From a virus (lineage: Duplodnaviria > Caudoviricetes): a stretch of 53,130 bases of DNA. Each line of letters begins with the position of its first letter. Within the stretch, counting starts at the first letter, position 1. Of this stretch, positions 1-45,004 are shown piece after piece. The notes below the pieces were generated by a model, which saw only the letters and a program-made list of their open reading frames with translations, searched no databases and had not been told where the DNA came from. The position numbers and the translations under genes were made by a program. The stretch is from positions 1-53,130 of the IMG/VR virus record IMGVR_UViG_3300037461_000603. The stretch is one strand, 5' to 3'.

Positions 1-306
1 AGCTCGCGTCCAGACGTCTACAGTCTGCAGACAATCCACGCAGTTGCGGAAGAGCCGGTCGAGCTTGTACGCGACCACGGCGCCGACCGCCCCGGAGCTC
101 GCCAGCTCGAGGAGCTCCGCGCCTCGTTCCCGGGTCGCGAGTGGTTTGCCGGCGCTCACTCCGGGGTCACCGAGCACAGATGAGAGTTCCAGGCCACGCA
201 TCGCGCAGTAGGACCGCAGCCGATCCTCCTGCGCTCCGAGCGACAGGCCCTCGATGGCCTGCTCGGCGGTTGACACTCTCACGTATCCGACGGCGCGTGT
301 TCCCAT
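1..306 (-). CDS. Serine recombinase/resolvase family protein, N-terminal part (runs off the window)
   Basis: Manual translation from ATG at 306: MGTRAVGYVRVSTAEQAIEGLSLGAQEDRL...VVAYKLDRLFRN. It has the catalytic YxRVST and DRLxR motifs. Not in the ORF track. Confidence 0.9.
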   Translation of the reverse strand, partial: MGTRAVGYVRVSTAEQAIEGLSLGAQEDRLRSYCAMRGLELSSVLGDPGVSAGKPLATRERGAELLELASSGAVGAVVAYKLDRLFRNCVDCLQTVDVWTRA

Positions 307-352
307 GGTGATCCCCTGCCTCTCTCCATCGGAAGCGGCCCCTCGATCCGGA

Positions 353-769
353 CTACTCCCGAGCGCACGCCTGTCGCTCCCGGAGCTCGCGCTCGAGCGG
401 GATCAGGAGCAGCCAGTCAGCGACCTTGTGCTCGAGGTTCTCGGCCCCTGGCATCAGCGTGTCCACGCGGTGGTGGATCAACTCGTGGATCAGCGACGTG
501 CGCCCGAGACAGCCGGAGACCATCTCTACCTCGACCAGGCCGCTCTCGTGGTAGAGCCCTGTCACTTCGTCCGTCATCCACTCTTCGGAATCGAGCTCGA
601 GCAGGTGGATCTCGACGGGGTAGAGGTCGATCAGCGGGTGCACGCGCTGCGCCGCCCACTCGACGAGCTCGGTGTCGACTTCGGACGTGCTCAGGTTGAC
701 GACGGTGATGGCTGCCCGCTCGCCGCATGCTGCGAGTATGAAAGTCATGGAGATTGTGACATGTTTCAT
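353..769 (-). CDS. Putative lipoprotein with HExxH zinc-metallopeptidase motif
   Basis: MKHVTISMTFILAAC lipobox-like signal; SLIHELIHH motif. Confidence 0.6.
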   Translation of the reverse strand: MKHVTISMTFILAACGERAAITVVNLSTSEVDTELVEWAAQRVHPLIDLYPVEIHLLELDSEEWMTDEVTGLYHESGLVEVEMVSGCLGRTSLIHELIHHRVDTLMPGAENLEHKVADWLLLIPLERELRERQACARE

Positions 770-791
770 CGCCGGCCCCCCTTCTTCCGTT

Positions 792-1424
792 TTAGTACTC
801 GATTTCTTCAGCATGCTCGCCAGCGCAGTCCTCGGTGTGCCCTGCGCCTTGCCAGCAGTAGCAGTCGGGATAGCCCAGATCCCACCCTCCACCGGCCGCG
901 GTGATCACGGAGCCGTCCGCAAAAGTCCAGCGGTACACCATGCGCTCGCCGGTGCTATCGCGCTTGCCCCCGGCCTCGGCGCACGCCGTGTCGAGGTCAA
1001 TGCCTTGATCGTCCTTCCAGCGCTGGCCATCATCGTGGAAGCGGGCTGCGATCTGCTCGGCGGTCGTTGCAGTCCAGTAGCGATCGTCGATCTCCCGGAT
1101 GGCGTCGGCAATCAGGGTGCAGATGTGGTCAACGGCGTCGTGGTCGGTCGCGGCCCAATCCTCCGGATCGTCGCCAGCACGGCATGCGTCGCAATCGCAT
1201 GCGACAGATCCGGTGCCGACAATCGTCAGCACCTTGACGCTCTGAATGTTTTGGTCAGTCGGGTTGCGGTAGGCATCAGGCAGGATCGTGCGCTCGTCAC
1301 GATTGATCGAGTCGACCACGACGAGCGTGCCGTCGGGCCAGATCTCGGCGCGAGCGTAGCCACTCTGATGCGCCTCCACGGCGAGTTCGGTTGCCGCCTT
1401 GATGATGTCGCTTTGCGTTGCCAT
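792..1424 (-). CDS. Hypothetical phage protein (Cys motifs CDCDAC, CYC)
   Basis: ORF with AGGAGA RBS before MATQSD. Confidence 0.7.
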   Translation of the reverse strand: MATQSDIIKAATELAVEAHQSGYARAEIWPDGTLVVVDSINRDERTILPDAYRNPTDQNIQSVKVLTIVGTGSVACDCDACRAGDDPEDWAATDHDAVDHICTLIADAIREIDDRYWTATTAEQIAARFHDDGQRWKDDQGIDLDTACAEAGGKRDSTGERMVYRWTFADGSVITAAGGGWDLGYPDCYCWQGAGHTEDCAGEHAEEIEY

Positions 1425-1500
1425 CGTCGTTCTCCTTGTGTGGTGGTCCATTCCGCTGCTGATGCCCAGGTCGCCCAGGGGCACGGAGCAGGGGAGCGGC

Positions 1501-1737
1501 TCAGTCCAGCTCTCTAGTGATCACACAAAATGCCTTGGCGCCGGGGTCGTCCTGGGCGTCGTCTGCGCTCGCCCATACCAGCGTCCGGTCGCCGCCCTCG
1601 CCGAGGTCGCCAGCGTGCCCGACCACGCAGCCCTCCCACGACGGCTGGTCGAGTAGCGAGTCAATCAAATCCTCGTAGCTCTCTGCCTCGCGGCGTCCAG
1701 TCGTCCCGTCTGCGTACGTCAGAAGGTAGCGCGCCAT
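1501..1737 (-). CDS. Hypothetical phage protein
   Basis: AGGAGA RBS before MARYLL; acidic, phage-like composition. Confidence 0.7.
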   Translation of the reverse strand: MARYLLTYADGTTGRREAESYEDLIDSLLDQPSWEGCVVGHAGDLGEGGDRTLVWASADDAQDDPGAKAFCVITRELD

Positions 1738-1776
1738 TGTCGTTCTCCTTCCTGTGGTTGCCATGGGCATGCCTCA

Positions 1777-2040
1777 TCAGCCGTGCAGCGTCGTTTCGTC
1801 GGCGTCGAGCCGCTCACGGATTCGATAGATTGCGAATTGGCTGCCGTCGTCGTCCTCCATCTCGACGTACTCACCCACGAGGCCAGCGGTCTGGAGCACG
1901 TCCAAGAAAGCGTCGAGTTCGCGTCCGTCGGGCTGCCGATCGTGGCGGATTCGCACGAGCATGCCTGCGGCCGGCGCACCCGGATCCATTGCGTGGTCCC
2001 AGCTGCCTGTGTACTTGTCGATCGTGATGTCGCGTTGCAT
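1777..2040 (-). CDS. Hypothetical phage protein
   Basis: MQRDITIDKY...; co-oriented within the minus-strand cassette. Confidence 0.55.
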   Translation of the reverse strand: MQRDITIDKYTGSWDHAMDPGAPAAGMLVRIRHDRQPDGRELDAFLDVLQTAGLVGEYVEMEDDDGSQFAIYRIRERLDADETTLHG

Positions 2041-2107
2041 GTGACCCCCAAGTGCTTTCGGGCAATCTTGCCCTAGTTCGTGTCCTGCTACCACATCGCA
2101 AACGCGG

Positions 2108-2767
2108 TCAAAAAGCGGACAGCTCCTCCGCCGCTTTTTTGGCTGCGTCATCGGCACTCATCCGTGAGAAGATCGGCAGGAGCTCTCGCGCCTGCTCGAG
2201 AGTAAGCCGCACGTCGCGCAATTCGATCCGTGTCTCGGTGTCGCTGTGATATAGCGTCGCGCGGTAGATGGCTCCACTTGGGTACCAGCACAGATCTGAG
2301 CCGTCCTTGCGTGCCTCTCCAAGCCACTGCGAGAGCTCGGCTATGACCTCGTCCTTGCGACGCTCGAGAGCATCCAATTCGGCGAGCTTGGCTTCCGCGG
2401 CCGCATACAGCATCAGATAATCAGGGAGGAGACGGCGGTCGATGTCCCGGGCGATCTTGGCTGCGGGTTTCAACGCATTCGCGCCGATTGACGGCTCGCG
2501 GTCGTGGTATCCGATGATTCCGAGATTTTGAAGGCTGGCGTTGCGTGGGTAGATACCTCGGATCGTGAGCTTGCTGGTGTGATAGTCAATCGACACCAAG
2601 AGCTTGTGTCCGGCATCGTCGGCTATCTCGTGCCAGTGGCTGCGATCGGGATCGTGTGGTGCTATTCTCCATACTCCCTCGAGGTTCGCGGCGACCTGTC
2701 GGCAGATCTCGTGAACCATGCGATCGCGATCGTTGCACGACAGGCGCAAGAACGATAGCGGTTCCAT
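2108..2767 (-). CDS. Hypothetical phage protein
   Basis: 219-aa ORF within the cassette. Confidence 0.7.
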   Translation of the reverse strand: MEPLSFLRLSCNDRDRMVHEICRQVAANLEGVWRIAPHDPDRSHWHEIADDAGHKLLVSIDYHTSKLTIRGIYPRNASLQNLGIIGYHDREPSIGANALKPAAKIARDIDRRLLPDYLMLYAAAEAKLAELDALERRKDEVIAELSQWLGEARKDGSDLCWYPSGAIYRATLYHSDTETRIELRDVRLTLEQARELLPIFSRMSADDAAKKAAEELSAF

Positions 2768-2850
2768 GCATCACCCCATCTCGAGAGCACCATTGCTCGA
2801 CTCGGGCCGCTGGCGCACGAACGCCAAGGGCCCGCGTCCAGCAATGCCAC

Positions 2851-3174
2851 TCAGTGCGTGCCCCAAGTCATCCCGCCATCATGCGAATGGACACCAGCGT
2901 TGATTGCGGCCGGATTCAACTTGCGGCCGGAAAGCGCCTCGGCTCTGGCGATTGCACGGCGGAGCTCGGGCGAATTCGCGGCGACCAACTTACGATAAGC
3001 GCAGGCATCAAATAGCATGCTGCGATCGCCAGTCCATCCGCGGAACGCAAGCGCGCCGTTCGCGCTGATGACCACCGTTGCCGTTCCAGCCGCGAGCTGT
3101 TTTCTCAGCCGATCAAGCGCATCCCTCTGTTTCTGGCGCATGATCTCGGTAAGGTCGATTCGGTCGCATGCCAT
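2851..3174 (-). CDS. Small protein of the AAA-ATPase module (DACAYR...HSHDGG.TW)
   Basis: AGGAGG RBS; lies directly downstream of the AAA ATPase and its partner gene. Confidence 0.75.
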   Translation of the reverse strand: MACDRIDLTEIMRQKQRDALDRLRKQLAAGTATVVISANGALAFRGWTGDRSMLFDACAYRKLVAANSPELRRAIARAEALSGRKLNPAAINAGVHSHDGGMTWGTH

Positions 3175-3207
3175 GGCTGGGGCCCTCCTGTTTTGTTGGC
3201 TCTCATC

Positions 3208-4032
3208 TCAGATGAAATCGAACGACGGCACGGCATATTCGGCCATTGCTGCCGCGACTTCTGGCGACTCATCCGGTGGAGCGAATTCAACGGCGCGCGC
3301 GGCAACGGGTGCGTCCTCGACCTCCTTTTCCTCGTCGAGGTCCAGGAAAGCGAACCGGGCGCTTGCGATTGCCTCAGTGCGTAGCTCGGCGATCACGTCC
3401 GCGGCACGCTCGCCTGATTTCTCGACGCGACGCGTGATCTCGCGAGCGGCTGCGCGCGCTTGATCGATTGCGGATGAGACCGCATCGGCAGCGTCACCGG
3501 ACAGCATAGCACCGATCGACCGGGCCCGGTTCGCTGCGTCGCGGATTGCCTCGGGATCTGCAGCTGCAATGCCCGATTGCATTGCAGAGAGTAAATCGCG
3601 AATCTCCGAGGAGATAGCGCGCGCCGCCTCAACATCATCATCCGCGATCCGGCCAGCGATCGCGTACACCGACACGTGACACGTGGCGGATGTGGCGTTG
3701 AAATCGTCCGCCAACTTGCGAGCGGCCGCAATGCACTCCCGGAGATTCTCCCCACGATCGACTGGGCAGAGCAAACCGAATTCGGAGCGGGAGCATACGC
3801 CAGTGATCAGGGTGCGGCACTTGGAGCGAACCCTGATTGCTGCCTCATATTCTACGGGATCTTGCACCTCGCGCGTCGTAAGCCACGTGGCAACCGCGGC
3901 GCCGTCGGACGTGGTCTCCGAGGAGACATCCATTCGCGAATACCGCGGTCCGCCGTTGACAGTGGATCGGAGAGCCACGAGATATCCCGGGCGGAGGATG
4001 CGAGCGGCGATTTTGTCAGTGGTCGGTTGCAT
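3208..4032 (-). CDS. Helical partner protein of the AAA ATPase (possibly DUF3150-like)
   Basis: 274-aa Ala-rich helical ORF, GGAG RBS, operonic with the ATPase. Confidence 0.7.
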   Translation of the reverse strand: MQPTTDKIAARILRPGYLVALRSTVNGGPRYSRMDVSSETTSDGAAVATWLTTREVQDPVEYEAAIRVRSKCRTLITGVCSRSEFGLLCPVDRGENLRECIAAARKLADDFNATSATCHVSVYAIAGRIADDDVEAARAISSEIRDLLSAMQSGIAAADPEAIRDAANRARSIGAMLSGDAADAVSSAIDQARAAAREITRRVEKSGERAADVIAELRTEAIASARFAFLDLDEEKEVEDAPVAARAVEFAPPDESPEVAAAMAEYAVPSFDFI

Positions 4033-4077
4033 GTCATCTCCCGTACGTTGTGGTTTCGGGTCTCTGGTGTCTATCGA

Positions 4078-5610
4078 TTACAGGTCCAAAGAGCGGACAC
4101 TTTGCGCGGACGATTCTTCTGGCGATGACGCCGATCGAGCTCGGCCGCGGGCCCAGTCTCGCACGGCCTGGATTCTATCGGCGCTTGTGCGTGCGAGCGG
4201 CACGGTTGCGCCAGCTGCAGCCACTAGATCGGCAGTAGACAGAGGGCGCGCTCCATCGGAAAAGGCCGTATAGAGCGCATCTGGGACAAGCGCGGCAATC
4301 TCGGAGCCGGTGAAATCCTGGCATGCACGTGCAACGGCCTGCAGGTCGATTGACTCGGTGCGATTGTGAGCCCGCAAGGCTGCAGCTACGATTGCGGCGC
4401 GCTCGCTTGTGGTCGGCAGGTCGACGAAAAACAGCTCGTCAAAACGGCCCTTGCGGAGTAGTTCAGGGGGAAGGGCGCGGACGTCATTGGCCGTTGCGAC
4501 CACGAACACGTCGCCTTGCCGTTCTTGCATCCATGACAGGATCGTACCGAGCGCATCAGCGCTAACCCCGCCGTCGGCGGCGCCTTGCGTTGCACCGGAA
4601 AGCGCTTTTTCGATTTCGTCAAGCCATAGCACACACGGCGCTACCGTTTCGGCCACCTTCAAGGCTTTGCGGATGTTCGCTTCGGAATCGCCAACCCATT
4701 TCGATTTGAGTGCACCCAAGTCGAGACGCAAGAGCGGCACACCCCATGCCGTGGCGATCGCCTTGGCCGTGAGACTCTTGCCGCACCCCGGGATGCCCAC
4801 GAGGAGAGCGCCTTTCGGGGCTGGCAAACCATAGGCGCGCGCCTCACGAGTGAATGCGGCGCGACGAGACACCAGCCATGATTTGAGCAGGTCCAGACCG
4901 CCAACGGCGTCAAGACCGCCAGAGATCGGATCGTACCACTCGAGCACCTTTTCACGGGAGATGACGCGACGCTTTTCCAAGCTGACGTCACGGGGCACGA
5001 TCTTGCGAGACTGAACAAGCGAGCGAGCGTAACAGGCTTGCGCTTCTTCTGCCGTGAGACCGACCGCGGCATCAATCGCGGCTTCTCGGGTTCCATTCGG
5101 TGCGGCGGAATCGCGGATGTCGTCGGGCAACGCGGCGATCACACTATCAAGGATGCTGGCGATTTCCGCGCGATCGGGCAACGGCCAGTCCACGACAATA
5201 GCGTGTCCTGCGAGCTCGGGTGGGATCTCCCCGACGGGGGATAGCACGACAAGCGCGCGCGCCGTGTCACGTGGCTGCAGCGATAGATTACGCGCCAAGG
5301 TGCGGACGGCGCGGAGGATGACTGGATCCGCAAGCCACTTGTGGAGATCTCGGAGCACGTATACGGCGCGATCGGTGCGATCACGAACACGTGCAAGCAC
5401 AGAGCTCGGATCGGTCAGAGACGAATCAACCGCCGATCCGTCATACGAGGTGAGACCCGTTGCACAGTCCCAAAAAAGCGGCGCATATTGTGCAGCTTGG
5501 CATGCCTCGAGTAATCCCCTCTCGGCTCGCGATTCTTCACGCGTGACAACCCACAGTAAGGTGTTTCGGGCCCGCAGTAGCGCGGCAATATCGGAGGATG
5601 TACGTTGCAT
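4078..5610 (-). CDS. AAA+ ATPase, Ycf46/SpoVK-like
   Basis: Walker A GIPGCGKS, Walker B LWLDEIEK, ATAN, arginine finger LRKGRFD, degenerate N-terminal AAA domain. Confidence 0.93.
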   Translation of the reverse strand: MQRTSSDIAALLRARNTLLWVVTREESRAERGLLEACQAAQYAPLFWDCATGLTSYDGSAVDSSLTDPSSVLARVRDRTDRAVYVLRDLHKWLADPVILRAVRTLARNLSLQPRDTARALVVLSPVGEIPPELAGHAIVVDWPLPDRAEIASILDSVIAALPDDIRDSAAPNGTREAAIDAAVGLTAEEAQACYARSLVQSRKIVPRDVSLEKRRVISREKVLEWYDPISGGLDAVGGLDLLKSWLVSRRAAFTREARAYGLPAPKGALLVGIPGCGKSLTAKAIATAWGVPLLRLDLGALKSKWVGDSEANIRKALKVAETVAPCVLWLDEIEKALSGATQGAADGGVSADALGTILSWMQERQGDVFVVATANDVRALPPELLRKGRFDELFFVDLPTTSERAAIVAAALRAHNRTESIDLQAVARACQDFTGSEIAALVPDALYTAFSDGARPLSTADLVAAAGATVPLARTSADRIQAVRDWARGRARSASSPEESSAQSVRSLDL

Positions 5611-5688
5611 GGTATGTCCTTTTCTCGAGTAAGTAATGGGCTCGCCGAATGCCTCATCCGCAAGGGACGGGGCATCGGAGCGAAACCA

Positions 5689-6096
5689 CTAGGTGAATGC
5701 ATGCACGCGGATGATGGAGTCTTGCGGCGTGCGTAGGAGTGTCCATTCCCCATCGGTGCCGCATGGCGTGCAACCATCTCTCAGCAACCGAGCCTGATAC
5801 TCTGGCATGTCTTTGACTCGGGGAATGCTCGCGTCGGATGGATGATGAATGCTCGGCTCGAGCCATCCGCACGCAGTCTTGCGGTAGGTCACGCGGGAGA
5901 ATCCCATTGTGCGTGCGGACGTCCGACGAGCCCGGGATTTGACGGCAACGGGCGGCGCAACGGTGTCTGCAGCTGGCATCGGACGGGACACACATGCCGA
6001 TCGGATGAGAGACAATGCCTCATCGATGCATGACAGCATGTCGTCAATCGCGGACTGCAATGACATGGTCTCTGTGGCGAATGAAAGGCTTGTCAT
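5689..6096 (-). CDS. Hypothetical phage protein
   Basis: GGAG RBS, 135 aa. Confidence 0.6.
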   Translation of the reverse strand: MTSLSFATETMSLQSAIDDMLSCIDEALSLIRSACVSRPMPAADTVAPPVAVKSRARRTSARTMGFSRVTYRKTACGWLEPSIHHPSDASIPRVKDMPEYQARLLRDGCTPCGTDGEWTLLRTPQDSIIRVHAFT

Positions 6097-8264: not shown

Positions 8265-8593
8265 CGACGCATCGAGCGCCTGTTGCTGGACGGGGGTGCG
8301 CGTTCTTTCGTGACTACGACGGGACGTTGACGAAGACGAAGTATGAGGACGACGTCGAGTCGTTTTCGTGGGACCTGACGAACGTTGTGCCATCTGGGGA
8401 GACGGTGTCGTCGGTGGCGTATGACGCGCAATCTGGGTTGTCGGTGAGTGGTGCCGCGTTGGTGACGCCTGTGTGGTCATGCACGGTGACGAAGACGGGA
8501 GTTCTTGAGGTGACGGCGACGTTCTCTGGTGGAAGCACGCTCACGGAGAGGTTTGCGTGGCAGCCGATTGACGAGGGTGTAAGCGACTACTGA
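8261..8593 (+). CDS. Small beta-rich virion-type protein (fiber/tail adaptor-like)
   Basis: ATGA overlap with the upstream gene; K..DD..SFSWD......GETVSS pattern. Confidence 0.5.
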   Translation: MTTHRAPVAGRGCAFFRDYDGTLTKTKYEDDVESFSWDLTNVVPSGETVSSVAYDAQSGLSVSGAALVTPVWSCTVTKTGVLEVTATFSGGSTLTERFAWQPIDEGVSDY

Positions 8594-9258
8594 TGAATCA
8601 ACTTGCGAAGGAACGGCGTTCTGTGCTTGCGCTTCGGGCTGCTCAGGTCGAGGCGAAGTGTGTTGAGCTGCGGCTGGCCGGCAAGACGTATCTTGAGATT
8701 GGAGTCGAAGTCGGTCACAACGCGTCCTTCGTGATGAAGATTCTGCGTCGTGTGTACCATCGACTCACGAACGAGGGGAAGCAAGACGCAATTCATCTAC
8801 GTGGGCTCGAGATTGCGCGGCTTGACGCGTTGCAGTCGAACTTGTGGGCGCGCGCGATGAAGGGTGACCTGCAGTTTGTTGATCGAGTGTTGCGGATCAT
8901 CGAGCAGAGGACGTCGTTGTTGGGCTTGAATTCCCCGGAGGTCATCGCATTTCATGCGCAGATCAACGTGCAGAAGCCTGCAGATCTGACAGACGAGCAG
9001 TTGGTGCAGATCATCGAGACGTTTCGCACGACGCAGCAGTTGGCTTCTTCTCAGAAGCCGTTGTTGCCCTCTGTTCCGATGGTTGTGGACGCGAAGAGTG
9101 GGCTTGTTGTCGAGGCCGAGGAAGAGGCGGAGAACGTGACGGACTTCACGGACGAGGAGCTCGAGGTCATTGCGCGCAAGATGGAGCGTGAGGAGGCGGC
9201 AAGTTTGGCCGTGTCTCCGTCTACCTCGGCGCCGGAGGAGAAGAAAGATGTCGTATGA
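8593..9258 (+). CDS. Putative terminase small subunit / HTH protein
   Basis: ELRLAGKTYLEIG HTH, LEIARLDALQ..LW..A..GD....DRVLRI.EQR..LLGL, DLTDEQL repeats; upstream of TerL. Confidence 0.65.
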   Translation: MNQLAKERRSVLALRAAQVEAKCVELRLAGKTYLEIGVEVGHNASFVMKILRRVYHRLTNEGKQDAIHLRGLEIARLDALQSNLWARAMKGDLQFVDRVLRIIEQRTSLLGLNSPEVIAFHAQINVQKPADLTDEQLVQIIETFRTTQQLASSQKPLLPSVPMVVDAKSGLVVEAEEEAENVTDFTDEELEVIARKMEREEAASLAVSPSTSAPEEKKDVV

Positions 9259-9502
9259 GTCACTTGACTCTGAGGTGCAGGGAATCTTGCGTGCGGCTGT
9301 GGACCGTGTGCGAGAGAGAATCGTCGAGGAAGAGACGGCGAACGCGGCCTCGCGCGTGAAATCGCGTCTTCACGAGCTCCTCGCTGCGTGTGTGCCTGTT
9401 CTGTACCGTGTCAGCGAAGACTACGGGAATCAGATCTCCATCCAGGTCAAGATCAACCAAGAGGCCATCGCTAATCTGCTCGAGAAAACGGTGCCGAAAT
9501 GA
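9248..9502 (+). CDS. Hypothetical protein
   Basis: Overlap-coupled ORF starting MSYESL. Confidence 0.6.
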   Translation: MSYESLDSEVQGILRAAVDRVRERIVEEETANAASRVKSRLHELLAACVPVLYRVSEDYGNQISIQVKINQEAIANLLEKTVPK

Positions 9503-9837
9503 AGAAGAAAGCTCAAAAACGCGGTCTTTTTCCTGAAATTGCGCCTCGGGGTGGGGTTCTGCCGCAACGATCCGGCTCTCTTGACTGCAAAGAGGTCTAC
9601 ATTGGGAGACAGAGCATCCATGCCGACAACGAGGCCATGGTATTGGTGCTCAAGATGGTAGGGGGAGAGAGAGCGATCGGAAAAGCGTGCGAGATGATCG
9701 ACGGTGAGGGCTACTTTCGCTGTGTTTTGAAGCCTGCGCAGCAGATTCGTCTGATGAAGATGCTCGTGGGCCTTCGAGCGAGCCGCGAGTTGGCGAATGT
9801 CGACCGTTTGGTGAAACCGATCTCAGAGTGGGGTTGA
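9499..9837 (+). CDS. Hypothetical protein
   Basis: ATGA-coupled ORF. Confidence 0.55.
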   Translation: MKKKAQKRGLFPEIAPRGGVLPQRSGSLDCKEVYIGRQSIHADNEAMVLVLKMVGGERAIGKACEMIDGEGYFRCVLKPAQQIRLMKMLVGLRASRELANVDRLVKPISEWG

Positions 9838-9839
9838 AC

Positions 9840-10658
9840 ATGAGCGTTCGAGAGTGGGCATCGATGTTGTTGGGTGGTGATGGTGAGTCACAGGCAGCTG
9901 GTGGTGAGCCCATGGATGAGCTTGCCGCGCTCCGTGAGCGTCTCATGCGCGAGCGCCGCGCTCCGACGCCCGAGGAGCAGGAGCTCCTGCGCTCCGGTGG
10001 ACCTGAAGCAGCCCAGAATCGTGCAATCGCAGCGAATCTCGCTCGGGCTCGACAGAGATTCGCTGATGAGCGGACGTTCGAGAATCCGCCGATCGAGTCC
10101 AATGTCGAGCTGACAATCCCCATCTCGCCGAAGACTCGAAACCTCGTGGAGGAGCAGCGGAACAAGTACGGTGAGCCTCGTCGTGGTGGACGTGTCTACG
10201 ACATGGAGGGATCTGTCGTCGAGGCTCTTCGGCCGCCTGACAAGTTTCAGGTCGATGTCGGCGAGCCTGTGATTGCTCCGCGTGTCGAGGTGGCTATCGG
10301 AGAGCCGGTGATTCATGAGGAGGGTCCGATAGAGACGCCACCAGTCCCAGAGCCTGCCCGGCGTTTCGCGCAGCTCAAGCGTGACATCAAGAAGGTTGGC
10401 GGATTCGGAAACATGTTGGAGCAATTGCTCTCTGAAGCGAAGACCGGATTTGGTGTTCCCGGTGAGGGCGCGGTTGCGTACGCCAGCATTCCGAAATCAG
10501 TGCGCGATCGAATCTCTCAGGCGTACGAGAAGCGTGGAATCAAGCTGCCGCCGATCATTGGGTGGGTGCCCTCGGAGCTATCGCCCGAGCTCGAGAATCT
10601 TCTCGCATACCTTCAAGCCGCTGGTCCCAAGGGGAACGTGGCTTTCACCATGGATTGA
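9840..10658 (+). CDS. Hypothetical protein
   Basis: Operonic ORF of about 272 aa. Confidence 0.65.
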   Translation: MSVREWASMLLGGDGESQAAGGEPMDELAALRERLMRERRAPTPEEQELLRSGGPEAAQNRAIAANLARARQRFADERTFENPPIESNVELTIPISPKTRNLVEEQRNKYGEPRRGGRVYDMEGSVVEALRPPDKFQVDVGEPVIAPRVEVAIGEPVIHEEGPIETPPVPEPARRFAQLKRDIKKVGGFGNMLEQLLSEAKTGFGVPGEGAVAYASIPKSVRDRISQAYEKRGIKLPPIIGWVPSELSPELENLLAYLQAAGPKGNVAFTMD

Positions 10659-10661
10659 CAC

Positions 10662-11180
10662 ATGAGCAAGACGACGATCACTGAGGCGTTGGCAGAGATC
10701 AAGACGATTGCGAAGAGGATCGAGGCGAAAGAGCGGTTCGTGATGAACTACCTCGTTCGCCCAGACGTTGTCCGCGACCCGCACCCAGAGGGATCTGTTG
10801 TCGTCGTCGGACGGGAGCTGCAGTCGCTTCGCGATCTCCGCACTCGCTGGATGCGGCTACGCCAAGCGATCGCGGAAGCCAATGCCAAGACGCACATGAC
10901 GATCTTGGGCATAGACCGCACCATCGCTGAATGGCTCATCTGGCGCCGCGAGATCGCTGACGGCGAGCAGGCATTCATTGGCCGCATATCTTCCATGATT
11001 CAAGAGGTCTCGAAAGAGATCGTGAAGCAGTCGTCGAGGGAAAATCCGATCCAGCCTGTTGTGTCGGTCGATGAGAGGTATCTATTTGCAGAGGCTGAGA
11101 TGCATCAGGAGGTCACCGGAACTCTCGACGGAAAGCTGTCGTTGCTGAATGCGACGACGTTTGTCGAAGTGCAGGACTAG
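10662..11180 (+). CDS. DIP1984/'septicolysin'-like coiled-coil protein
   Basis: TITEALAEIK.I.KRI...LRQAIAEANA.T...I......TIAEWL..RRE...LDGKLSLLNATT.VEV pattern. Confidence 0.7.
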   Translation: MSKTTITEALAEIKTIAKRIEAKERFVMNYLVRPDVVRDPHPEGSVVVVGRELQSLRDLRTRWMRLRQAIAEANAKTHMTILGIDRTIAEWLIWRREIADGEQAFIGRISSMIQEVSKEIVKQSSRENPIQPVVSVDERYLFAEAEMHQEVTGTLDGKLSLLNATTFVEVQD

Positions 11181-11192
11181 GAATTCAGGTTT

Positions 11193-11507
11193 GCCATCTT
11201 TCGTGAGCGATGCGAGAGAATGAGTCACATCAAGTCCAGACTAGCTCAACGGGTAGAGCACATGGTTGTGGACCATGAGGCCGCTGGTTCGAGTCCCGTG
11301 TTTGGCTCACATGATCACCCCACACAGGCGATCGTGCAGCATCAAAGCGCATCGATGAACGCTCAGAAGCTCAGGATACCAACGTTCACCGATCAGTGTT
11401 TAGCGATTCTACAAATCCATCATCACATTGCCGACTGCAGAGATGCGGTCGGACCGCAACGTGACACGGCGGTTTCTCGGATGGATGGCTGCTCTCAGGA
11501 AGATGGC
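11193..11507 (+). ncRNA. Candidate structured ncRNA (~315 nt) with a closing stem, embedded tRNA-like domain, 7-nt periodic tract and GNRA hairpin
   Basis: 5' GCCATCTTTC(G)TGAG pairs with 3' CTCA-GGAAGATGGC; internal CCGACTGCA-GAGA-TGCGGTCGG hairpin; ATCCATC/GATGGAT helix. Confidence 0.65.
11234..11309 (+). tRNA. tRNA-His(GUG)-like cloverleaf, non-canonical ends
   Basis: D arm GCTC/GAGC, anticodon arm CATGG-TTGTGGA-CCATG, T loop TTCGAGT. It has a 1:72 T-C mismatch, a T-stem mismatch, no C73 and no encoded CCA. Confidence 0.75.
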
Positions 11508-11582
11508 TCCCTCTTTCCACGTGGTTTCTTCGCTCGTCCTGGATTCGACGACCACGAAGAATACCTCTGAATAGGACATCAG

Positions 11583-12308
11583 GTGACAGCTCCGCGTCTC
11601 GTTATCGTCTCAGGTTCCGGTCGTTGTGGAAGCTCTCTGCTCATGCAGATGTTGAGCGCTGGTGGAGTTGCATGCTCCGGTCCCTATCCGAACTTCGAGG
11701 ACCCGCGTGCCATGCAGGGGCTTGACCTCGAGTGGCTGTCGTCGTTTCACGGTGCGGTCAAGATCCTCGATCCGCATCGTTACCTGCCATCCGGTTTCGT
11801 GCTCTATGACGCGCGTGGAATCTGGCTGGATCGCGACCGCAAGCAGCAAGCCATCTCGTGGTGCAAGATCTCCAGGGATGTCGTGGGTCGCAAGAATGTT
11901 TCACGTGAAGACGTGCCGCGAGTGGCGAAGCGCCTCAAGGAGTCGCGAAAGCCAGGCGTTCAGAAGCTCGTCGACGTGACAGGTCGTGGTCCTCTTTGCC
12001 TCACGTTCGAGGGCATCCTCGCAGCACCGCGCTCCGCGGCAGAGAAGATGGCCAAGTTTCTCGAGATGGAGCTCGACGTCGCGCGCATGGCGGCGCAGGT
12101 GATTCCGCGGACATCGGCTTGCATCAATGGACTGCTCGAGAACGACATGGTGCGCATGGGACAGCGTGCCGTCGAGAACATGGTCCGCCAACAGCGCGGA
12201 ATGACCACCGAAAACGAAGGAAAAGAAGACGAGTCCAAGATGAACATCGTTCGACAGCCGATGGAGATCGCATCTGCGGCTGTCGCGATGTCACACAGGA
12301 GAATCTGA
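11583..12308 (+). CDS. Sulfotransferase-family P-loop protein
   Basis: IVSGSGRCGSSLLMQML PAPS-binding-like loop, R-x7-S motif (RDRKQQAIS), later LTFEGIL..P. Confidence 0.75.
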   Translation: MTAPRLVIVSGSGRCGSSLLMQMLSAGGVACSGPYPNFEDPRAMQGLDLEWLSSFHGAVKILDPHRYLPSGFVLYDARGIWLDRDRKQQAISWCKISRDVVGRKNVSREDVPRVAKRLKESRKPGVQKLVDVTGRGPLCLTFEGILAAPRSAAEKMAKFLEMELDVARMAAQVIPRTSACINGLLENDMVRMGQRAVENMVRQQRGMTTENEGKEDESKMNIVRQPMEIASAAVAMSHRRI

Positions 12309-12451
12309 TGCCGTTGAAGTCAGGAAGCTCGAAGAAGGTCATCAGCGAGAACATTCGCCGCGAGATGGACGCCGGTCGTCCACAGAAGCAAGCCGTCGCC
12401 ATCGCGATGAGAAAGGCCGGGAAGGCGAAGAAGAGTGGAAAGAAGCGGTGA
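12308..12451 (+). CDS. Small basic phage protein (MPLK.GSS..ISENI..EM..G.PQKQAVAIA family)
   Basis: Recognisable conserved small phage peptide; TGATG coupling. Confidence 0.8.
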   Translation: MPLKSGSSKKVISENIRREMDAGRPQKQAVAIAMRKAGKAKKSGKKR

Positions 12452-13996: not shown

Positions 13997-15523
13997 GTGC
14001 CCATCACGCCAGATCAAGCTGTTCAGGAAATCTTCACACGACGCGCCGCGCGCGAGAATCTCCTGGCGTTCACGGCCTATACGCACCCGAGATGGAGGAC
14101 TGGACCGCATCATCATCTAATGGCTGATGCTCTCGACAAGGTCATCAACGGACAGCTGAAGCGGGTGATCATCTGCGCTCCTCCTCGTGGAAGCAAGAGC
14201 GAGATGGCGACTAGGCGTCTACCGCCATTCTTCATGGGGAAGTTTCCTGACCGTCAGATCATCACAGCGTGCTACGGAGACGCCCTCGCGCATGACATGG
14301 GCAAGGACGTCCGTGGAATCATCAAAGAGACCCGCTACCTCAACCTGTTTCCAGACGTTCGTCTTGCGGCGGACACGCGTGCTGCCGGTCGCTGGAACAC
14401 GAACAAGGGCGGGATCTACATCAGCTGCGGTGTTGGTGGCCCGATTGTGGGCCGTGGTTTTCACATCGGCCTGATTGACGATCCGTTCAAGGGAAGGAAG
14501 GAAGCGGACTCTCCGCTTGTTCGTGAAGACGTCTGGAAATGGTATTGGGGCAACTTCTACACCAGGCGCATGCCTGATTTCGACGACCCTGTTGAGGATC
14601 AAGAAGGCTGGGGGAATGCTGCCATCGTGTTGATCATGACCCGCTGGCACCAGGACGACCTCGCCGGCAGGTTGTTGAAGCAAGAAGGCAGCGTCGATGA
14701 GGGTGGAACATGGACCGAGGTTGACATTCCAGCGATTCGCAACGAGGACTCACTTGACGAAGAGTCATTCTGGCCGGAGGCATTCCCGATCGATGAATTG
14801 CAGGCCACCCGAGCAGCAATGATCAGCGCAGGAAGAAGCCGAGAATGGTCTGCGCAGTACAAACAGAGACCAACTGTCGAAGAAGGCACGTTCATCAAGA
14901 GGGCATGGTTCGAGAACAGGTATCAGCAGGTTCCTGAGAAGACCAGGATCTACATCGCCTCCGACTACGCGACTGTCGATGAGAGCGAGGGCTCAAATCC
15001 CAACTTCACTGAGCATGGCGTCTTTGGGATGTCGCCAAATGGTGACCTGTACGTACTCGATTGGTGGTTTGGTCGCACTGAATCTGATGTTTGGGTCGAA
15101 AAGCTGCTCGATTTGGTCCTGAAATGGCACCCCAACGCCGTGTTCGGTGAAAAAGGGCAGATCGTCAGGTCTGTAGGGCCATATCTGCGGCGCCGAAAGA
15201 AGCAGAGGAGCCTCAGATTCCGTCTGGAGCTCATCGCCAGATCGAAGGATAAGCAGGAATGCGGACGTGGCTTTCAGGCCATGGCATCCAGCGGAGAAGT
15301 GTTGTTCCCTGAAAAAACACCTTGGGCCGAGAGGGTCGTCGAACAGTGTGTCGGGTTCCCATCTGTCGAATTTGACGACGCCTTCGATGTCATGTCATTG
15401 ATGTGCATGGCTATTGACATTGCACATCCTGCATTGTCGTATTCAAGAAGATCCGAGGGTATGGAGAAACGCCGTGACCGGTGGCGGGTCGAGAGCAATC
15501 CGACAAGCTGGAAGACGGTGTAG
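13997..15523 (+). CDS. terL: Terminase large subunit
   Basis: PPRGSKS Walker A, GRG..IDDP.K, TRWHQDDL.G, YxQRP, RNase H-like nuclease with DD..D. Confidence 0.96.
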   Translation: MPITPDQAVQEIFTRRAARENLLAFTAYTHPRWRTGPHHHLMADALDKVINGQLKRVIICAPPRGSKSEMATRRLPPFFMGKFPDRQIITACYGDALAHDMGKDVRGIIKETRYLNLFPDVRLAADTRAAGRWNTNKGGIYISCGVGGPIVGRGFHIGLIDDPFKGRKEADSPLVREDVWKWYWGNFYTRRMPDFDDPVEDQEGWGNAAIVLIMTRWHQDDLAGRLLKQEGSVDEGGTWTEVDIPAIRNEDSLDEESFWPEAFPIDELQATRAAMISAGRSREWSAQYKQRPTVEEGTFIKRAWFENRYQQVPEKTRIYIASDYATVDESEGSNPNFTEHGVFGMSPNGDLYVLDWWFGRTESDVWVEKLLDLVLKWHPNAVFGEKGQIVRSVGPYLRRRKKQRSLRFRLELIARSKDKQECGRGFQAMASSGEVLFPEKTPWAERVVEQCVGFPSVEFDDAFDVMSLMCMAIDIAHPALSYSRRSEGMEKRRDRWRVESNPTSWKTV

Positions 15524-35933: not shown

Positions 35934-36304
35934 GCTGCGACGATATCGGAGATGCTTGCACGATGGCCTGCGATGGAGACAGCGGGAACGGGAAATCGAA
36001 CGGCGGAGGAATCGGACACAGCCCGCTCGAGCCTCCGAGCGGTGGCTGGCCATCACAGAAGCCCGACAAGTGCGACGAGCACTCGCACACTCTTTGCCGT
36101 GTCATGCGCGCCGAAGAGGACAACGCACGACTGCTCGCAGCGATCCGCCAGGCCGACAGCGACAGCCGAGGTCGTGATGATGGACTGCATACCCTCACGA
36201 CAGAGCTGATGAGAATCCAGGGTCAGATCCTCGAAACGCTCCGCCACGTGCAGGACGACCAGTATGCCATCAAAAGGCATTTGGAGCTCGTGAATGCCGG
36301 CTGA
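35930..36304 (+). CDS. Hypothetical protein
   Basis: ATGA-coupled ORF. Confidence 0.5.
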   Translation: MSCDDIGDACTMACDGDSGNGKSNGGGIGHSPLEPPSGGWPSQKPDKCDEHSHTLCRVMRAEEDNARLLAAIRQADSDSRGRDDGLHTLTTELMRIQGQILETLRHVQDDQYAIKRHLELVNAG

Positions 36305-36755
36305 ACTCGAATGTGACCTCTGGATCCGGGGCGTTCCGGCGCGAGCGAAGCTGGTCGAGATTCAGCCATGCAAGGTGATCCCGCTCTTCAGTCAGCGCGC
36401 CTGGCCGGCTCAGTACCTCGAGCGCGATGCTGCAACAGACTTCGTTGCCATGCGTGAGGCGGCAGAGAAGGACGGAGTCGAGCTGCTCGTCTATTCGGCG
36501 TTCAGGACGATGGCAGAGCAAGGCCGATTGTTCCGGGAATGGCAGGCCGGCAAGCGCAAGCTCAGACCTGCGACGCCTGGCAAGTCGACGCATCAGAGCG
36601 GCAAGTCAGTCGACATCCAGAGGTCGCACGATGATCCGGACGGCGGAGGCCCGCTCCGCGGAAAGACGGATCTGTGGCTCGAGGCAAACGCAGCCCGCTT
36701 CAATTTTCACAACGACGTCAAGGGCGAACCTTGGCACTGGACCCACAAGAGGTGA
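36294..36755 (+). CDS. Endolysin, peptidase M15 (VanY-like)
   Basis: SAFRT..EQ, PG.S.H..G..VD, EPWHW zinc-peptidase motifs. Confidence 0.9.
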   Translation: MPAELECDLWIRGVPARAKLVEIQPCKVIPLFSQRAWPAQYLERDAATDFVAMREAAEKDGVELLVYSAFRTMAEQGRLFREWQAGKRKLRPATPGKSTHQSGKSVDIQRSHDDPDGGGPLRGKTDLWLEANAARFNFHNDVKGEPWHWTHKR

Positions 36756-36758
36756 CCC

Positions 36759-37217
36759 ATGCAACCGACTCTCGGTGAGATGCTGATGCGAGATGTTGTC
36801 CCCGAGCTCGTAGTGGCGCTCGGCGCAGCGCTGACGCTGCTCGTGGTCTGGCTCCGGAGCAAGACCGCCAGGGCCATCAGCGAGACCAAGATGGCTGGTG
36901 CAGCCAAGGCCGCGCTCGACTGGGCGGCAACGCTCGCCTTCGAGGTCGTGATGTCCGGGATGAATTCTGCGAAGGACTGGAAGAAAGAGCTCGCCGACGG
37001 GAAGATCACCCGTGAGGAGCTCGACGCCAAGCTGGCGGCACTGAAGGCGGCTGCGCTGAAGACGGTCCAGGACGCGACCATTGGCCGGCTCGTGGGCTCC
37101 GGTGCGGTCGGCTCGCACGAGGCAGGATCCGCGGTCGTCAACAACCTCGTCGAGAGCGCCGTCGTCAAGGCCGGAATGGCGACCGCGACAAACCCTCCGC
37201 TGCCGCCGTCGACCTGA
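36759..37217 (+). CDS. Holin-like membrane protein
   Basis: N-terminal TM, DGKIT.EE, VESAV; immediately after the endolysin. Confidence 0.65.
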   Translation: MQPTLGEMLMRDVVPELVVALGAALTLLVVWLRSKTARAISETKMAGAAKAALDWAATLAFEVVMSGMNSAKDWKKELADGKITREELDAKLAALKAAALKTVQDATIGRLVGSGAVGSHEAGSAVVNNLVESAVVKAGMATATNPPLPPST

Positions 37218-37591
37218 GAGGCTCACATGTCGCGGCGGCAATCACGGATGCAGCCAAAATGGTCCCAACCGACCTCGAGATCGGAAGAGGTCGGATGGTT
37301 GCAGGTGCTATGTTGGCTCCTTGTGGTGTTGGGCTTGGTCTTCGCGTTGATCAGCATGTGGCCGGTCCGCTGAGTGCATTCGCGGAGGCAGAGGCATTGT
37401 GGTCATGGAAGTGGCGATTGTCTGACTGGCGGACGATCTGCGGCGTCCAGTTCAACTGGTAGTCCACACCGCGCCCCACCTCAAACCACACACGATTTGA
37501 GGCGGAACAGGCCCGATCTCGCACGCGCTGGGGCAGAGTGGACTAGGATGACCTACCCATGGCTTGGCGTAGTCCAGTAGGCGTCTGGGGC

Positions 37592-37948
37592 TCACGTCTC
37601 GACCTCGATGACCTGGATACCAGCCTGTCGTGCTCTGCGGACCGTATCAGCGGTCCCACGGCCTCCAGGGAACGCGATCACCAAGTCCGGCTTGCCCTCG
37701 TCAATCATGCGCTGATTACTTACCGGGCTGGCGGATCGGCCTTCGACCGTCCAGCAGAGCACATCGAGTCCGGCCATGGCCGCCCACACGCCAGCCATCT
37801 GATCGGCTCCGGTGGCCCCTCCGTGGATGATGACGTCGAACGGACCAAGCTCGTGATTCAGCCTGGTCATGTGGTACCCGAACGCCAGGGCATCACGGCG
37901 ATGGTCTCCGAATATCCGGCCGCCGCAGACGAGAACGCGAGAGCTCAT
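37592..37948 (-). CDS. YspA/SLOG (DUF2493-like) protein
   Basis: RVLVCGGR, IIHGGATGAD, NQRM.....PDLVIAFPGGRGTAD. Confidence 0.88.
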   Translation of the reverse strand: MSSRVLVCGGRIFGDHRRDALAFGYHMTRLNHELGPFDVIIHGGATGADQMAGVWAAMAGLDVLCWTVEGRSASPVSNQRMIDEGKPDLVIAFPGGRGTADTVRRARQAGIQVIEVET

Positions 37949-38113
37949 GCGTGGAGCCTCCGGACGCCTGGATCCGCATCTCGGAATTTGACGGGCAATT
38001 GACAGCCAACAGCCGGCGCAACGTGTCTCGTCTCGTCCGACTTTGGCGCGAACCCACTGGCGCAGGCTGTCTGACGCTGTCTGTGAGGGTCGCAATTCGG
38101 CGCGAGCGTCTCC

Positions 38114-38163
38114 ACGGTCTTCGAACCCGTAGGCCACAAGTTCGAATCTTGTAGGGCGCGCCA
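38114..38163 (+). mobile_element. attP core: 3' half of tRNA-Arg(UCG)
   Basis: ACGGTCT-TCG-AACCCGT AGGCC ACAAG-TTCGAAT-CTTGT AGGGCGC GCCA; the 5' half is absent; 40 bp from the integrase stop. Confidence 0.85.
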
Positions 38164-38203
38164 AATGAAAACAACCGAGTTCGTTGCCATACATCACCCC
38201 CAA

Positions 38204-39391: not shown

Positions 39392-39394
39392 CGG

Positions 39395-39604
39395 CTACCC
39401 CACGGCCCGCATCATGCTCTTCGCCGCCATCTCGATCAGCGCCTTCTTGGGGATGCGACGGCGCCCGCGGATCTGAGCATAGACGAGCTCCCCCGACTCC
39501 ATCAGGCGACAGACCGTCCTGGTGGAGACGGACAAGAATGCCGCGGCATCTGCCACCGAGACCAGCCCCTCGTCAAGGAGACCGGCCACCTCTCGCTCTG
39601 TCAT
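39395..39604 (-). CDS. xis: Excisionase (HTH_17/MerR-like)
   Basis: LVSVADAAAFLSVSTRTV.RL...GEL....I.G.RRI; directly upstream of int. Confidence 0.85.
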   Translation of the reverse strand: MTEREVAGLLDEGLVSVADAAAFLSVSTRTVCRLMESGELVYAQIRGRRRIPKKALIEMAAKSMMRAVG

Positions 39605-39667
39605 GTGCTTCTCCTTCGCATCTTGCGTATCTCCGTCACGTCCCGGCCATCGACGACCGCGCGAGTG

Positions 39668-40482: not shown

Positions 40483-40483
40483 C

Positions 40484-40726
40484 TCAGAACCTCACCGTGC
40501 ACGACTTGAATACCAGCCCGCAGCACACGACGCCGCGTACCATCTTGCCGACCGGATTCTTCGCGCGGAACCCGGTCGACCAGGAGTCATCCCTGCTGCA
40601 CGAGAACGGAGACCAGCCGGTGATCTCGATCTCGGTGAATCCGTGGTTGCGCAGAGCTGCGCGCGACGCGTCTTCGTTGGCACAGCCGATGACGGCGAGA
40701 CACGCAATCAGTAGTAGGCTCCTCAT
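40484..40726 (-). CDS. Phage lipoprotein, Cys-rich
   Basis: MRSLLLIACLAVIGC lipobox; G.....ITG...F.CS.DD...TGF.A....G.VC.G...K.CT.RF. Confidence 0.8.
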   Translation of the reverse strand: MRSLLLIACLAVIGCANEDASRAALRNHGFTEIEITGWSPFSCSRDDSWSTGFRAKNPVGKMVRGVVCCGLVFKSCTVRF

Positions 40727-44994: not shown

Positions 44995-45004
44995 CTCTTC
45001 ACTC

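Follow-up and report, generated by a model that had tools for sequence, protein, structure and literature searches.

Two questions are raised by the bases that follow a small protein gene in a virus of the Caudoviricetes: do they specify a structured RNA and, if so, what has this RNA to do with the protein encoded just ahead of it? The virus is IMG/VR record IMGVR_UViG_3300037461_000603, 53,130 bases long and with a completeness rated at 98%; this whole stretch is called the window hereafter. The gene encodes a helical protein of 172 amino acids, and 12 nucleotides (nt) separate its TAG stop codon (11178-11180) from the first strand of a long-range helix. An earlier note, made from the letters of the window alone, had pointed out this spacing, which the sequence bears out, and had suggested that the helix closes an RNA, that gene and RNA are co-transcribed and that their products form a ribonucleoprotein. 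Comparison with relatives gives the answer to the first question. The segment 11193-11507 is a member of a conserved pseudoknotted RNA family of ~250-360 nt, this member having ~315 bases, and it can hardly be doubted that a genuine conserved structured RNA is coupled here to the gene for the 172-residue protein. The window carries one copy of a two-part phage module, a protein gene plus an RNA, that is uncatalogued.

If the RNA is real, a conserved structure should lie downstream of homologous genes, as the earlier note had pointed out, and this is what was found. Thirty-seven elements were aligned with MAFFT (alignment A2, 455 columns), without L060, which nearly duplicates L016, and L029, whose sequence stops at a contig end. 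RNAalifold draws 40 pairs on this alignment, 34 of them with compensatory changes. The cells of A2 that should be paired are paired in 91.6% of cases, against 65.4% after shuffling of the partners (a value as high as the observed one was reached by 0 of 500 shuffles) and 34.7-42.9% after sliding them; the corresponding covariation scores are 0.739, 0.222 and 0.10-0.13. The closing helix was also assessed independently of any alignment, by pairing the 5' strand of each of the 37 elements with the 3' strand of every element. Cognate duplexes have a mean energy of -18.1 kcal/mol compared to -11.5 kcal/mol for non-cognate ones (Mann-Whitney p = 3e-16), and for 13 elements the cognate strand comes first of all 37, while for 27 it ranks among the top three. 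The RNA lies on the + strand, like the gene, because two conserved G-U pairs (columns 10/446, U-G in 31/37 members; columns 18/437, G-U in 35/37) would be A-C on the opposite strand.

The ends of the RNA are held together by helix P1, in which GCCATCTTTC pairs with GGAAGATGGC over 10 bp, including one G-U; helix 1 of A2, where columns 5-14 with 441-451 correspond to P1, has compensatory changes in 10 of its 13 pairs. P1 is followed by a bulged residue, G11203, because of which the closing helix was not among the 25 inverted repeats listed for 10400-12400. The earlier note had drawn a closing helix of 14 bp. Its 10 bp that make up P1 covary, but the remaining four, TGAG 11204-11207 with CTCA 11494-11497, are replaced in the family consensus by an AGC/GCU pairing (P2; window 11207-11209 with 11490-11492, A2 columns 16-18 with 437-439). 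The window permits both pairings, which are mutually exclusive at G11207, and its minimum-free-energy (MFE) fold has the TGAG/CTCA one.

Just inside P1 lies the conserved 5' motif, AGCGATGCGAGAGAA in the window and AGCGAAGTGAGAGAA in the family consensus. There is a single good copy of it in the window, with 2 mismatches, and it recurs downstream of the gene in relatives. Besides the 5' strand of P2, it holds one strand of a pseudoknot (PK), in which UGAGA of the 5' motif pairs with UCUCA of the 3' core. The two strands are paired in 93.5% of cases, against 84.1% after shuffling (reached in 0 of 500 shuffles) and 21.6-61.1% after sliding; all five pairs show compensatory changes, the window having a C-G pair at a place that is U-A in most members. 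P3 (98.9% paired, 4/5 pairs compensatory) and P4 (95.3% paired, 4/4 compensatory) are likewise closed by the 3' core, which bears hairpins P5 and P6, in which every A2 pair is compensated (8/8 and 6/6). The CCATC/GATGG helix enclosing a 9-bp hairpin with a GAGA loop, which had been recognised by eye, is thereby recovered: both parts are present and covary in A2. The strand 11475-11492, made of the successive 3' strands of PK, P4, P3 and P2, is the most conserved part of the covariance model described below. In the relatives the blocks follow one another in a constant order, namely the 5' motif, a variable stretch, an A-rich periodic tract, AAAAUCC, the GNRA hairpin, a second hairpin, UUCUCAGG-N-GGUGGCUGC and a strand complementary to the 5' end.

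Other roles considered for these sequences were rejected. The 5' motif is not a promoter, as it has one good copy only in the window and pairs in the pseudoknot. A coding role for the element is contradicted by the course of the open reading frame (ORF) 11220-11570, which crosses the tRNA, and by stops in the tract, seen by eye in the shared frame of relatives such as L033 and L013. Nor can sequestration of a Shine-Dalgarno sequence be the general role of P1: this helix covaries to non-Shine-Dalgarno sequences in L024, L025 and L014, and the next gene of the window is 75 nt off. GGAG(G) is found 5-8 nt ahead of an ATG in L012, L030, L041, L043 and L046.

The RNA is found almost wherever the gene is. 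Scans of IMG/VR seeded with the protein returned 6, then 63 loci, which were searched with a covariance model, R1, built from the 3' domain alone (85 positions, 23 pairs). At E <= 5e-7, R1 matches 54 of the 66 loci obtained with the protein, and every match is on the gene's strand. The others comprise 3 weak matches, 2 loci cut at a contig end and 7 misses; these seven, as well as L052 among the weak matches, retain by eye both the tract and the AAAxCC...GGCTG motifs. Among metagenome-assembled genomes (MAGs) of GTDB, 16 of 18 loci are matched, and the contigs of the other two end at the gene. MAG contigs with the element are binned with at least nine lineages: Chloroflexota, Alphaproteobacteria, Armatimonadota, Acidobacteriota, Planctomycetota, Desulfobacterota, Bacteroidota, Gemmatimonadota and a Clostridium MAG. 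The converse search started from the RNA. A scan with the degenerate 5' motif gave 31 loci, 17 of which were judged real, 14 by their 3'-domain pattern and three (L136, L147 and L149) by eye. In each of the 17 the gene lies upstream and in the same orientation, at 6-373 nt in 16 cases and at 1093 nt in L147. Thirteen of them sit on contigs already known through the protein, so that the new contigs number four (L133, L136, L147 and L152), and R1 matches all four. The 14 remaining loci are unrelated matches, and R1 matched none of the 7 tested.

The surroundings of the pair, by contrast, change from one genome to another. No recurrent family emerged from the 36 downstream and 28 upstream ORFs scanned, which include an HNH endonuclease, RecT, RtcB, the large terminase, thymidylate synthase, a Gp2.5-like single-stranded DNA-binding protein and a repressor. 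In two loci, L045 and L063, the RNA stands upstream of the gene. Varying neighbours, together with an RNA that may come ahead of the gene, mean that gene and RNA behave as a unit, and the coupling of the two is near-obligatory. That they form a conserved pair, as the earlier note had it, is thus established on both viral and MAG loci. Their co-transcription is almost certain: they share a strand, the gap between them is 12 nt in the window, the gene match lies 6-26 nt from the 5' motif in 11 of the 17 motif-seeded loci, and in phage phiPsa315, a distant relative discussed below, gene and RNA-like stretch are enclosed between a promoter-like site (11/12) ahead of the former and a terminator-like one behind the latter. 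A look-up of sequencing runs for expression of the element listed no RNA run, but two DNA runs from wetland metagenomes, one of them possibly the source sample.

Sequences resembling the 5' motif occur elsewhere. An exact 15-mer scan of IMG/VR returned 57 loci. The element accounts for 3 of these, all previously known; the others are due to chance or to an unrelated repeat. The latter is a short tandem-like repeat, AAACGAAGCGAG followed by the motif, seen in L073, L083, L094 and ~15 more loci and unrelated to the element; many of the viral contigs with this type of repeat share one IMG/VR numeric prefix. In L144, L145 and L154, near 1490-1560, the 5' motif lies inside a short self-closing hairpin (GCCTTCGG...CCGAAGGC), without tract, 3' domain or partner gene. 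This hairpin may be a remnant or an unrelated look-alike.

Table 1. The gene, the RNA and their parts in the window. Positions are those of the window; A2 is the 37-member alignment.
Feature	Position	Strand	Basis
Gene of the 172-aa helical protein, DIP1984-like fold, conserved partner of the RNA	10662..11180	+	ORF, PHROG, NCBIfam, AF2, Foldseek
Entire closed structured RNA, from P1 5' strand through P1 3' strand	11193..11507	+	Alignment A2 (37 members), RNAalifold, pair counts
P1 closing helix, 5' strand GCCATCTTTC; pairs with 11498-11507	11193..11202	+	Sequence; A2 columns 5-14 with 441-451; duplex test
Conserved 5' motif AGCGATGCGAGAGAA (family consensus AGCGAAGTGAGAGAA), holding P2 5' strand 11207-11209 and the pseudoknot 5' strand	11206..11220	+	Relatives, A2
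Pseudoknot PK, 5' strand CGAGA; pairs with TCTCG 11475-11479	11213..11217	+	A2 columns 22-26 with 421-425
tRNA-His, anticodon GTG, in the variable slot	11235..11307	+	Rfam RF00005, ARAGORN
Period-7 tract	11341..11408 (approx.)	+	Lag-7 autocorrelation, tract sequences, length
P3, 5' strand CCATC, after conserved AAAT; pairs with GATGG 11484-11488	11417..11421	+	A2 columns 352-356 with 430-435
P4, 5' strand; pairs with 11480-11483	11426..11429	+	A2 columns 362-365 with 426-429
P5 hairpin, 9 bp, GAGA (GNRA) tetraloop 11440-11443	11431..11452	+	A2 columns 368-375 with 380-387; MFE fold
P6 hairpin, 11452-11457 with 11469-11474	11452..11474	+	A2 columns 394-399 with 415-420
3' core strand TCTCG-GATG-GATGG-CTGC, successive 3' strands of PK, P4, P3 and P2	11475..11492	+	A2 pair counts
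P1 closing helix, 3' strand GGAAGATGGC	11498..11507	+	Sequence, duplex test, A2 pair counts
Hairpin between the RNA and the next gene (GTG 11583), outside the conserved element	11526..11561	+	MFE fold

Two long inserts interrupt this compact core (Table 1). The first is a slot of variable content that is occupied in the window by a tRNA. The cloverleaf had been described as tRNA-His-like. It is indeed there, but it is not merely tRNA-like: ARAGORN calls a tRNA-His(GTG) at 11236-11306, and the Rfam tRNA model, whose gathering score is 29, gives 49.1 bits, so that a real tRNA gene sits in a slot that varies among relatives. The synthetase HisRS recognises bacterial tRNA-His by an additional G at -1 that pairs with C73. 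The tRNA of the window is atypical in this register (Rfam, 11234-11309): G11234 at -1 faces U11307 at 73, giving G-U, the 1:72 pair is a U-C mismatch and CCA is not encoded. No transfer-messenger RNA (tmRNA), a class with a tRNA-like domain made by both ends of the molecule and a tag reading frame, is called in the window by ARAGORN or Rfam, and the stops noted above, read by eye, interrupt the shared frame of the tract in relatives.

In the A2 members the slot is 52-162 nt long; ARAGORN finds a tRNA in 13/37, a T-loop-like motif is present in 21/37 and an anticodon-arm-like hairpin in 23/37. When all 71 distinct elements found with the model are considered, the slot holds a tRNA in 23, with at least 14 different anticodons; slots of relatives contain either tRNAs of at least 14 other anticodons than that of the window or tRNA-arm-like hairpins. 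The tRNA begins 10-111 nt past the gene in 19 of 66 loci, again with diverse anticodons. A conserved motif, gCCTTCGGnAGCGAAGTGAGAGAA, precedes the tRNA in the spacers and is found as well in loci that lack a called tRNA. In five slot tRNAs the anticodon loop has an unusual size (L023 3082-3160, L025 3102-3177, L065 3088-3162, L063 2080-2152 and L133 1396-1470), for which ARAGORN gives the four-base or two-base 'anticodons' atcc, taaa, tt, aa and tc; these may be tRNA mimics or frameshift-type tRNAs. Further tRNAs are found around the module in some genomes: arrays lie within 1-2 kb of it in L022 (4181-5519), L034 (5077-5514) and L055 (3387-4151), the 5.5-kb locus of L022 totalling 15 tRNAs, and the 132-kb viral contig of L039 also bears a tmRNA, cut at the locus edge (1-296; Rfam RF00023, 78.9 bits). 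In L169, a MAG contig binned with Desulfobulbia, an RtcB-type tRNA-splicing ligase is encoded right after the RNA (3556-4737; phrog_1075, E 4e-141). RtcB is also a neighbour of rsr/Y-RNA loci, and this single case makes a link to RNA or tRNA repair possible.

The second insert is the periodic tract, which proved to be a stretch of fixed length with a period of 7, in keeping with what had been seen in the window. It measures ~66 nt (65-69 nt in 33/37 members) and consists in the relatives of (A)AAG plus 4 nt, with ~4 + 4-5 repeats flanking a central AGGAUUU-like segment. Over the family, identity at lag 7 is 0.474, against 0.274 after shuffling, and 7 is the best lag in 32/37 members; the tract of the window itself has a lag-7 identity of 0.39, against 0.243 +/- 0.056, a value reached by 1% of 2000 shuffles. 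The tract is probably not a simple hairpin: its two halves are both A-rich and, by eye, non-complementary, and RNAalifold pairs only 4 bp at its base.

What of the protein? There are 561 relatives at E <= 0.001, the nearest among the matches listed being 49% identical. The family resemblance to DIP1984/'septicolysin' that had been recognised by eye holds for the fold. The AF2 model (pLDDT 96.2) consists of four long helices and a small four-stranded sheet, and its best Foldseek match is 3kdq_C, a protein of C. diphtheriae (E 4.1e-5, probability 1.00, TM 0.53/0.58, 18% identity), which we take to be the product of locus DIP1984; chains of 3kdq are the only significant matches. At the level of profiles the assignment is not secured: NCBIfam DIP1984_fam (NF038048) gives 20.2 bits (E 5.2e-4), below its cut-off of 70 bits. 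The same profile run on the genome of the window had no match, and among 14 control genomes only Deinococcus radiodurans matched. A Pfam search of the window protein returned nothing, and DUF6847 matches 11 of 40 relatives weakly (best E 4.4e-4). The window protein is thus like the DIP1984/DUF6847 ('septicolysin') family in its 3kdq fold and unlike it in falling below the NCBIfam cut-off and lacking a Pfam match. PHROG assigns it to phrog_1491 (E 4.8e-14), labelled 'tail fiber protein', a label for which we saw no support. Our literature search found no functional study of DIP1984, DUF6847 or 'septicolysin' proteins, the 'septicolysin' papers listed being genome annotations or surveys.

Prediction of two copies together suggests a homodimer, with a score of 0.68 against 0.00 for the best of 3 controls, runs that agree in at least 93% of contacts and a partner pLDDT of at least 88. 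The mark used is reached by 20 of 30 proteins solved as one-chain pairs and by 1 of 23 single-chain ones, counts that hold only roughly here, since the prediction was made from an alignment of our own; the pass may also reflect memorisation by the predictor, as the related crystal 3kdq has several chains. Invariant or near-invariant residues of the family are K14, R19, K23, R33, R62, R67, R95, R96, R117, W91 and W94.

The module seems to extend, in a diverged form, to cultured phages. Among 50,697 phage records the protein has only distant matches (27-35% identity over 53-78% of the query), in 15 records, 14 from Pseudomonas phages and one from a Pectobacterium phage. Six of these phages, namely phiPsa315, UNO-G1W1, COT4, Ep020 and Bobbio, all of the genus Otagovirus, plus UAVern, an unassigned Pseudomonas phage, have a gene that shares 31-35% identity with the query across 53-67% of its length. 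The annotated records of these phages leave ~375-430 nt without an annotated gene after the homologous gene, except that of UNO-G1W1, in which two small annotated ORFs overlap the RNA-like stretch. Long-range helices close this stretch, in which AAAG heptads and an AAAUC-helix...helix-CUG arrangement are found, and RNAalifold draws 59 pairs on the six phages, 18 with compensatory changes. It differs from the window RNA in its 5' motif and in having no tRNA inside. R1 has no match at E <= 1 in L159 or L160, the cultured-phage copies being too diverged; because the model fails to detect them, the homology of these RNAs is read from the shared layout rather than from a scored match. At the DNA level, the tRNA is the sole match between the window and cultured phages.

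Is the RNA a known one? With Rfam 15, no family besides tRNA and tmRNA reaches its gathering score in the window and 20 relatives; nothing but tRNA appears in window 11150-11620 at E <= 10, and nothing at E <= 1 in 3100-3450 of the tRNA-less L010 or in phiPsa315. No published description of this RNA was found in the literature. The 5' motif is not in the six supplement files searched of the 2023 catalogue of 10,006 candidate viral RNAs (PMC10690425), whose files 1, 2 and 4 lay outside the search and may list the element. The closest themes are offered by GOLLD and ROOL, elaborate, pseudoknotted phage and prophage RNAs found near tRNA genes, with tRNAs sometimes inside the GOLLD linker (PMC12286853 and PMC12990946). 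Rfam contains models of both, many GOLLD members exceed 800 nt, and no protein partner is known for ROOL (PMC12286853). The window RNA is likewise phage-encoded and pseudoknotted and may carry a tRNA in a slot (23/71). This is a resemblance and not a membership: the window RNA matches neither Rfam model, is much smaller (~250-360 nt), has a heptad tract of fixed length and is tied to one protein gene.

A protein gene adjoining a structured RNA that the protein binds is a familiar arrangement, exemplified by IscB/TnpB with omega RNA, Rsr with Y RNA or YrlA, and SmpB with tmRNA. The window resembles these by the juxtaposition of gene and RNA; it differs in that its protein has the 3kdq fold, four helices and a small sheet, and is no nuclease, Ro ring or SmpB. 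YrlA and tmRNA possess a tRNA-like module closed by pairing of the two ends of the RNA, whereas the tRNA of the window occupies an internal slot and is not made by the ends; neither ARAGORN nor Rfam gives a tmRNA or Y RNA here. The tract recalls the targets of two oligomeric proteins, TRAP, which binds GAG/UAG repeats, and HutP, which binds UAG with 4-nt spacers, so that its sites are spaced by 7. Here, too, purine triplets recur at fixed spacing in a single-stranded run, (A)AAG plus 4 nt with a period of 7. The proteins are unrelated, however, and in the present case the tract makes up just a part of a far larger RNA with a fold of its own.

What, then, would the pair do? In the explanation that we favour, a gene for a DIP1984-fold helical protein, predicted to dimerise, is followed on the same strand, and most likely in the same transcript, by an RNA of 250-360 nt. 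The ends of the RNA pair (P1, P2), the purine-rich strand just inside them forms a pseudoknot with the 3' core, which also closes P3 and P4 and bears P5 with its GNRA loop and P6, and this compact core carries the two inserts: a variable slot, with a tRNA-His gene here and other tRNAs or tRNA-arm-like hairpins in relatives, and the ~66-nt tract of (A)AAG-N4 heptads. Protein and RNA would act together as a ribonucleoprotein. The probability of this reading as a whole, comprising fold, coupling and protein-RNA complex, is put at roughly one half. A direct complex, for which genetic linkage and the predicted homodimer argue, may or may not form with about equal likelihood. The heptad tract would be the likeliest multi-site platform for protein dimers, although its being the binding site is a tentative proposal. 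The slot would display a tRNA or tRNA mimic or, after processing by RNase P/Z, yield it, and a role at the interface of the phage and host tRNA or translation biology is favoured. A more specific version can be imagined, in which DIP1984-fold dimers line the heptad tract of a novel phage ribonucleoprotein while the slot presents the tRNA or mimic, the particle protecting, storing or decoying tRNA in the face of host defences that target tRNA, anticodon nucleases for instance, or docking on the translation apparatus; in this detail it is rather unlikely to be right.

Several observations weigh against a ribonucleoprotein of this kind. The protein family is not basic, with a median isoelectric point of 6.66 (range 4.77-9.04; 6.00 for the window protein), which is unusual for an RNA-binding protein, and no recognised RNA-binding domain was found by Pfam in the window protein or its relatives. 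ROOL and GOLLD, its nearest analogues in theme, assemble without protein (PMC12286853). A regulatory relation would account for the linkage too, as would a pathway that protein and RNA share without touching. As for the RNA, the tract of the window is a weaker heptad copy than that of most members, and the lone sequence 11185-11565 folds with a z of only -1.52, 9 of 100 shuffles folding equally well; this fold is therefore no evidence by itself, and it is the comparison with relatives that decides.

The main rival holds that the RNA is a machine in its own right, of the ROOL/GOLLD type, which folds and perhaps multimerises alone, the tRNA being a covalent passenger and the protein merely sharing its transcript or pathway. 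The compact pseudoknotted core with a GNRA tetraloop, the phage origin with tRNAs inside or beside, the non-basic character of the protein family just mentioned and a tract that is, by eye, rich in short palindromes (AGCU, ACGU) able to pair between molecules would all suit such an RNA. Yet it does not explain why the RNA is nearly always next to a gene of one protein family while the other neighbours change, the RNA matches no Rfam family other than tRNA, hence neither GOLLD nor ROOL, and its ~250-360 nt are far below the size of many GOLLD members (PMC12286853); we consider this rival unlikely. The same closeness to the gene that argues for co-transcription, 12 nt past the stop codon here and 6-26 nt in most motif-seeded loci, together with the terminator-like site after the RNA-like stretch of phiPsa315, could mean that the RNA is a cis element of the gene's own mRNA (a 3'-untranslated-region stabiliser, a processing signal or a feedback operator) and has no function in trans. 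Such roles require far less than a pseudoknotted RNA that exceeds 250 nt and has a tract of fixed length and a tRNA slot, however, and the RNA precedes the gene in L045 and L063 and lies 100-370 nt from it in several loci, and 1093 nt in L147, so that a cis role appears improbable.

The presence of a tRNA in 23 of 71 slots, its start 10-111 nt past the gene in 19 of 66 loci and the T-loop-like motif of 21 of 37 slots could be taken to mean that the element is a cassette for tRNA expression, its conserved parts corresponding just to a phage pre-tRNA's leader and trailer or to tRNA genes that have decayed. This is very improbable in view of the 48 of 71 elements that have no callable tRNA and keep the full core and tract, of the conserved, covarying parts outside the tRNA and of a tRNA identity that changes freely among at least 14 anticodons. 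Finally, it is scarcely credible that the element is a catalytic RNA of a new kind, self-cleaving or other, or the RNA component of a mobile cassette travelling together with the gene. The many genomic contexts of the pair, the nine or more bacterial lineages with which its contigs are binned and the strictly conserved unpaired nucleotides beside the pseudoknotted core speak for something of this sort; against it, Rfam gives no ribozyme match, no catalytic motif was recognised, and direct repeats, an integrase or a nuclease do not consistently adjoin the pair.

The remainder of the locus adds some detail. The hairpin that the earlier note had placed after the RNA is present in the MFE fold, though it lies outside the conserved element, and no terminator-like site is called in 9400-12400. 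The next gene (11583-12308, 241 aa) has sub-threshold matches to sulfotransferases (Pfam Sulfotransfer_3, 18.1 bits against 27) over an N-terminal GSGRCGSS P-loop-like stretch; its product has no match in PHROG. The large terminase gene (13997-15523) is situated 2.5 kb downstream of the gene-RNA pair, and upstream of it lies 8593-9258, whose 221-aa product matches phrog_645, labelled 'Rnase E' (E 1.5e-18), and has, by eye, a helix-turn-helix-like N-terminus; we suspect that it is a candidate small terminase. The G+C content of the window is 60-66% in 1-6000 and 36000-53130 and 54-58% in 6000-36000, except for one 2-kb bin at 61%. A reversal of the GC skew near 34-38 kb suggests two modules in opposite orientation.

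Large, intricately folded RNAs of bacteria and phages whose function is unknown are rare, and each has opened a line of research. The present element combines features that known classes do not have together: an obligatory protein-gene partner of solved fold, a slot that takes a tRNA of any identity and a heptad tract of fixed length. The module occurs in dozens of other phages, uncultured and binned with many bacterial phyla, and the diverged form in cultured Pseudomonas phages, if it is one, makes it directly testable. It accounts for the phage tRNA at this position and marks ~300-430 bases that current phage annotations leave blank. Should the more specific version given above, with dimers lining the tract, be true, the DIP1984/DUF6847 ('septicolysin') family would gain its first function, as the partner of an RNA.

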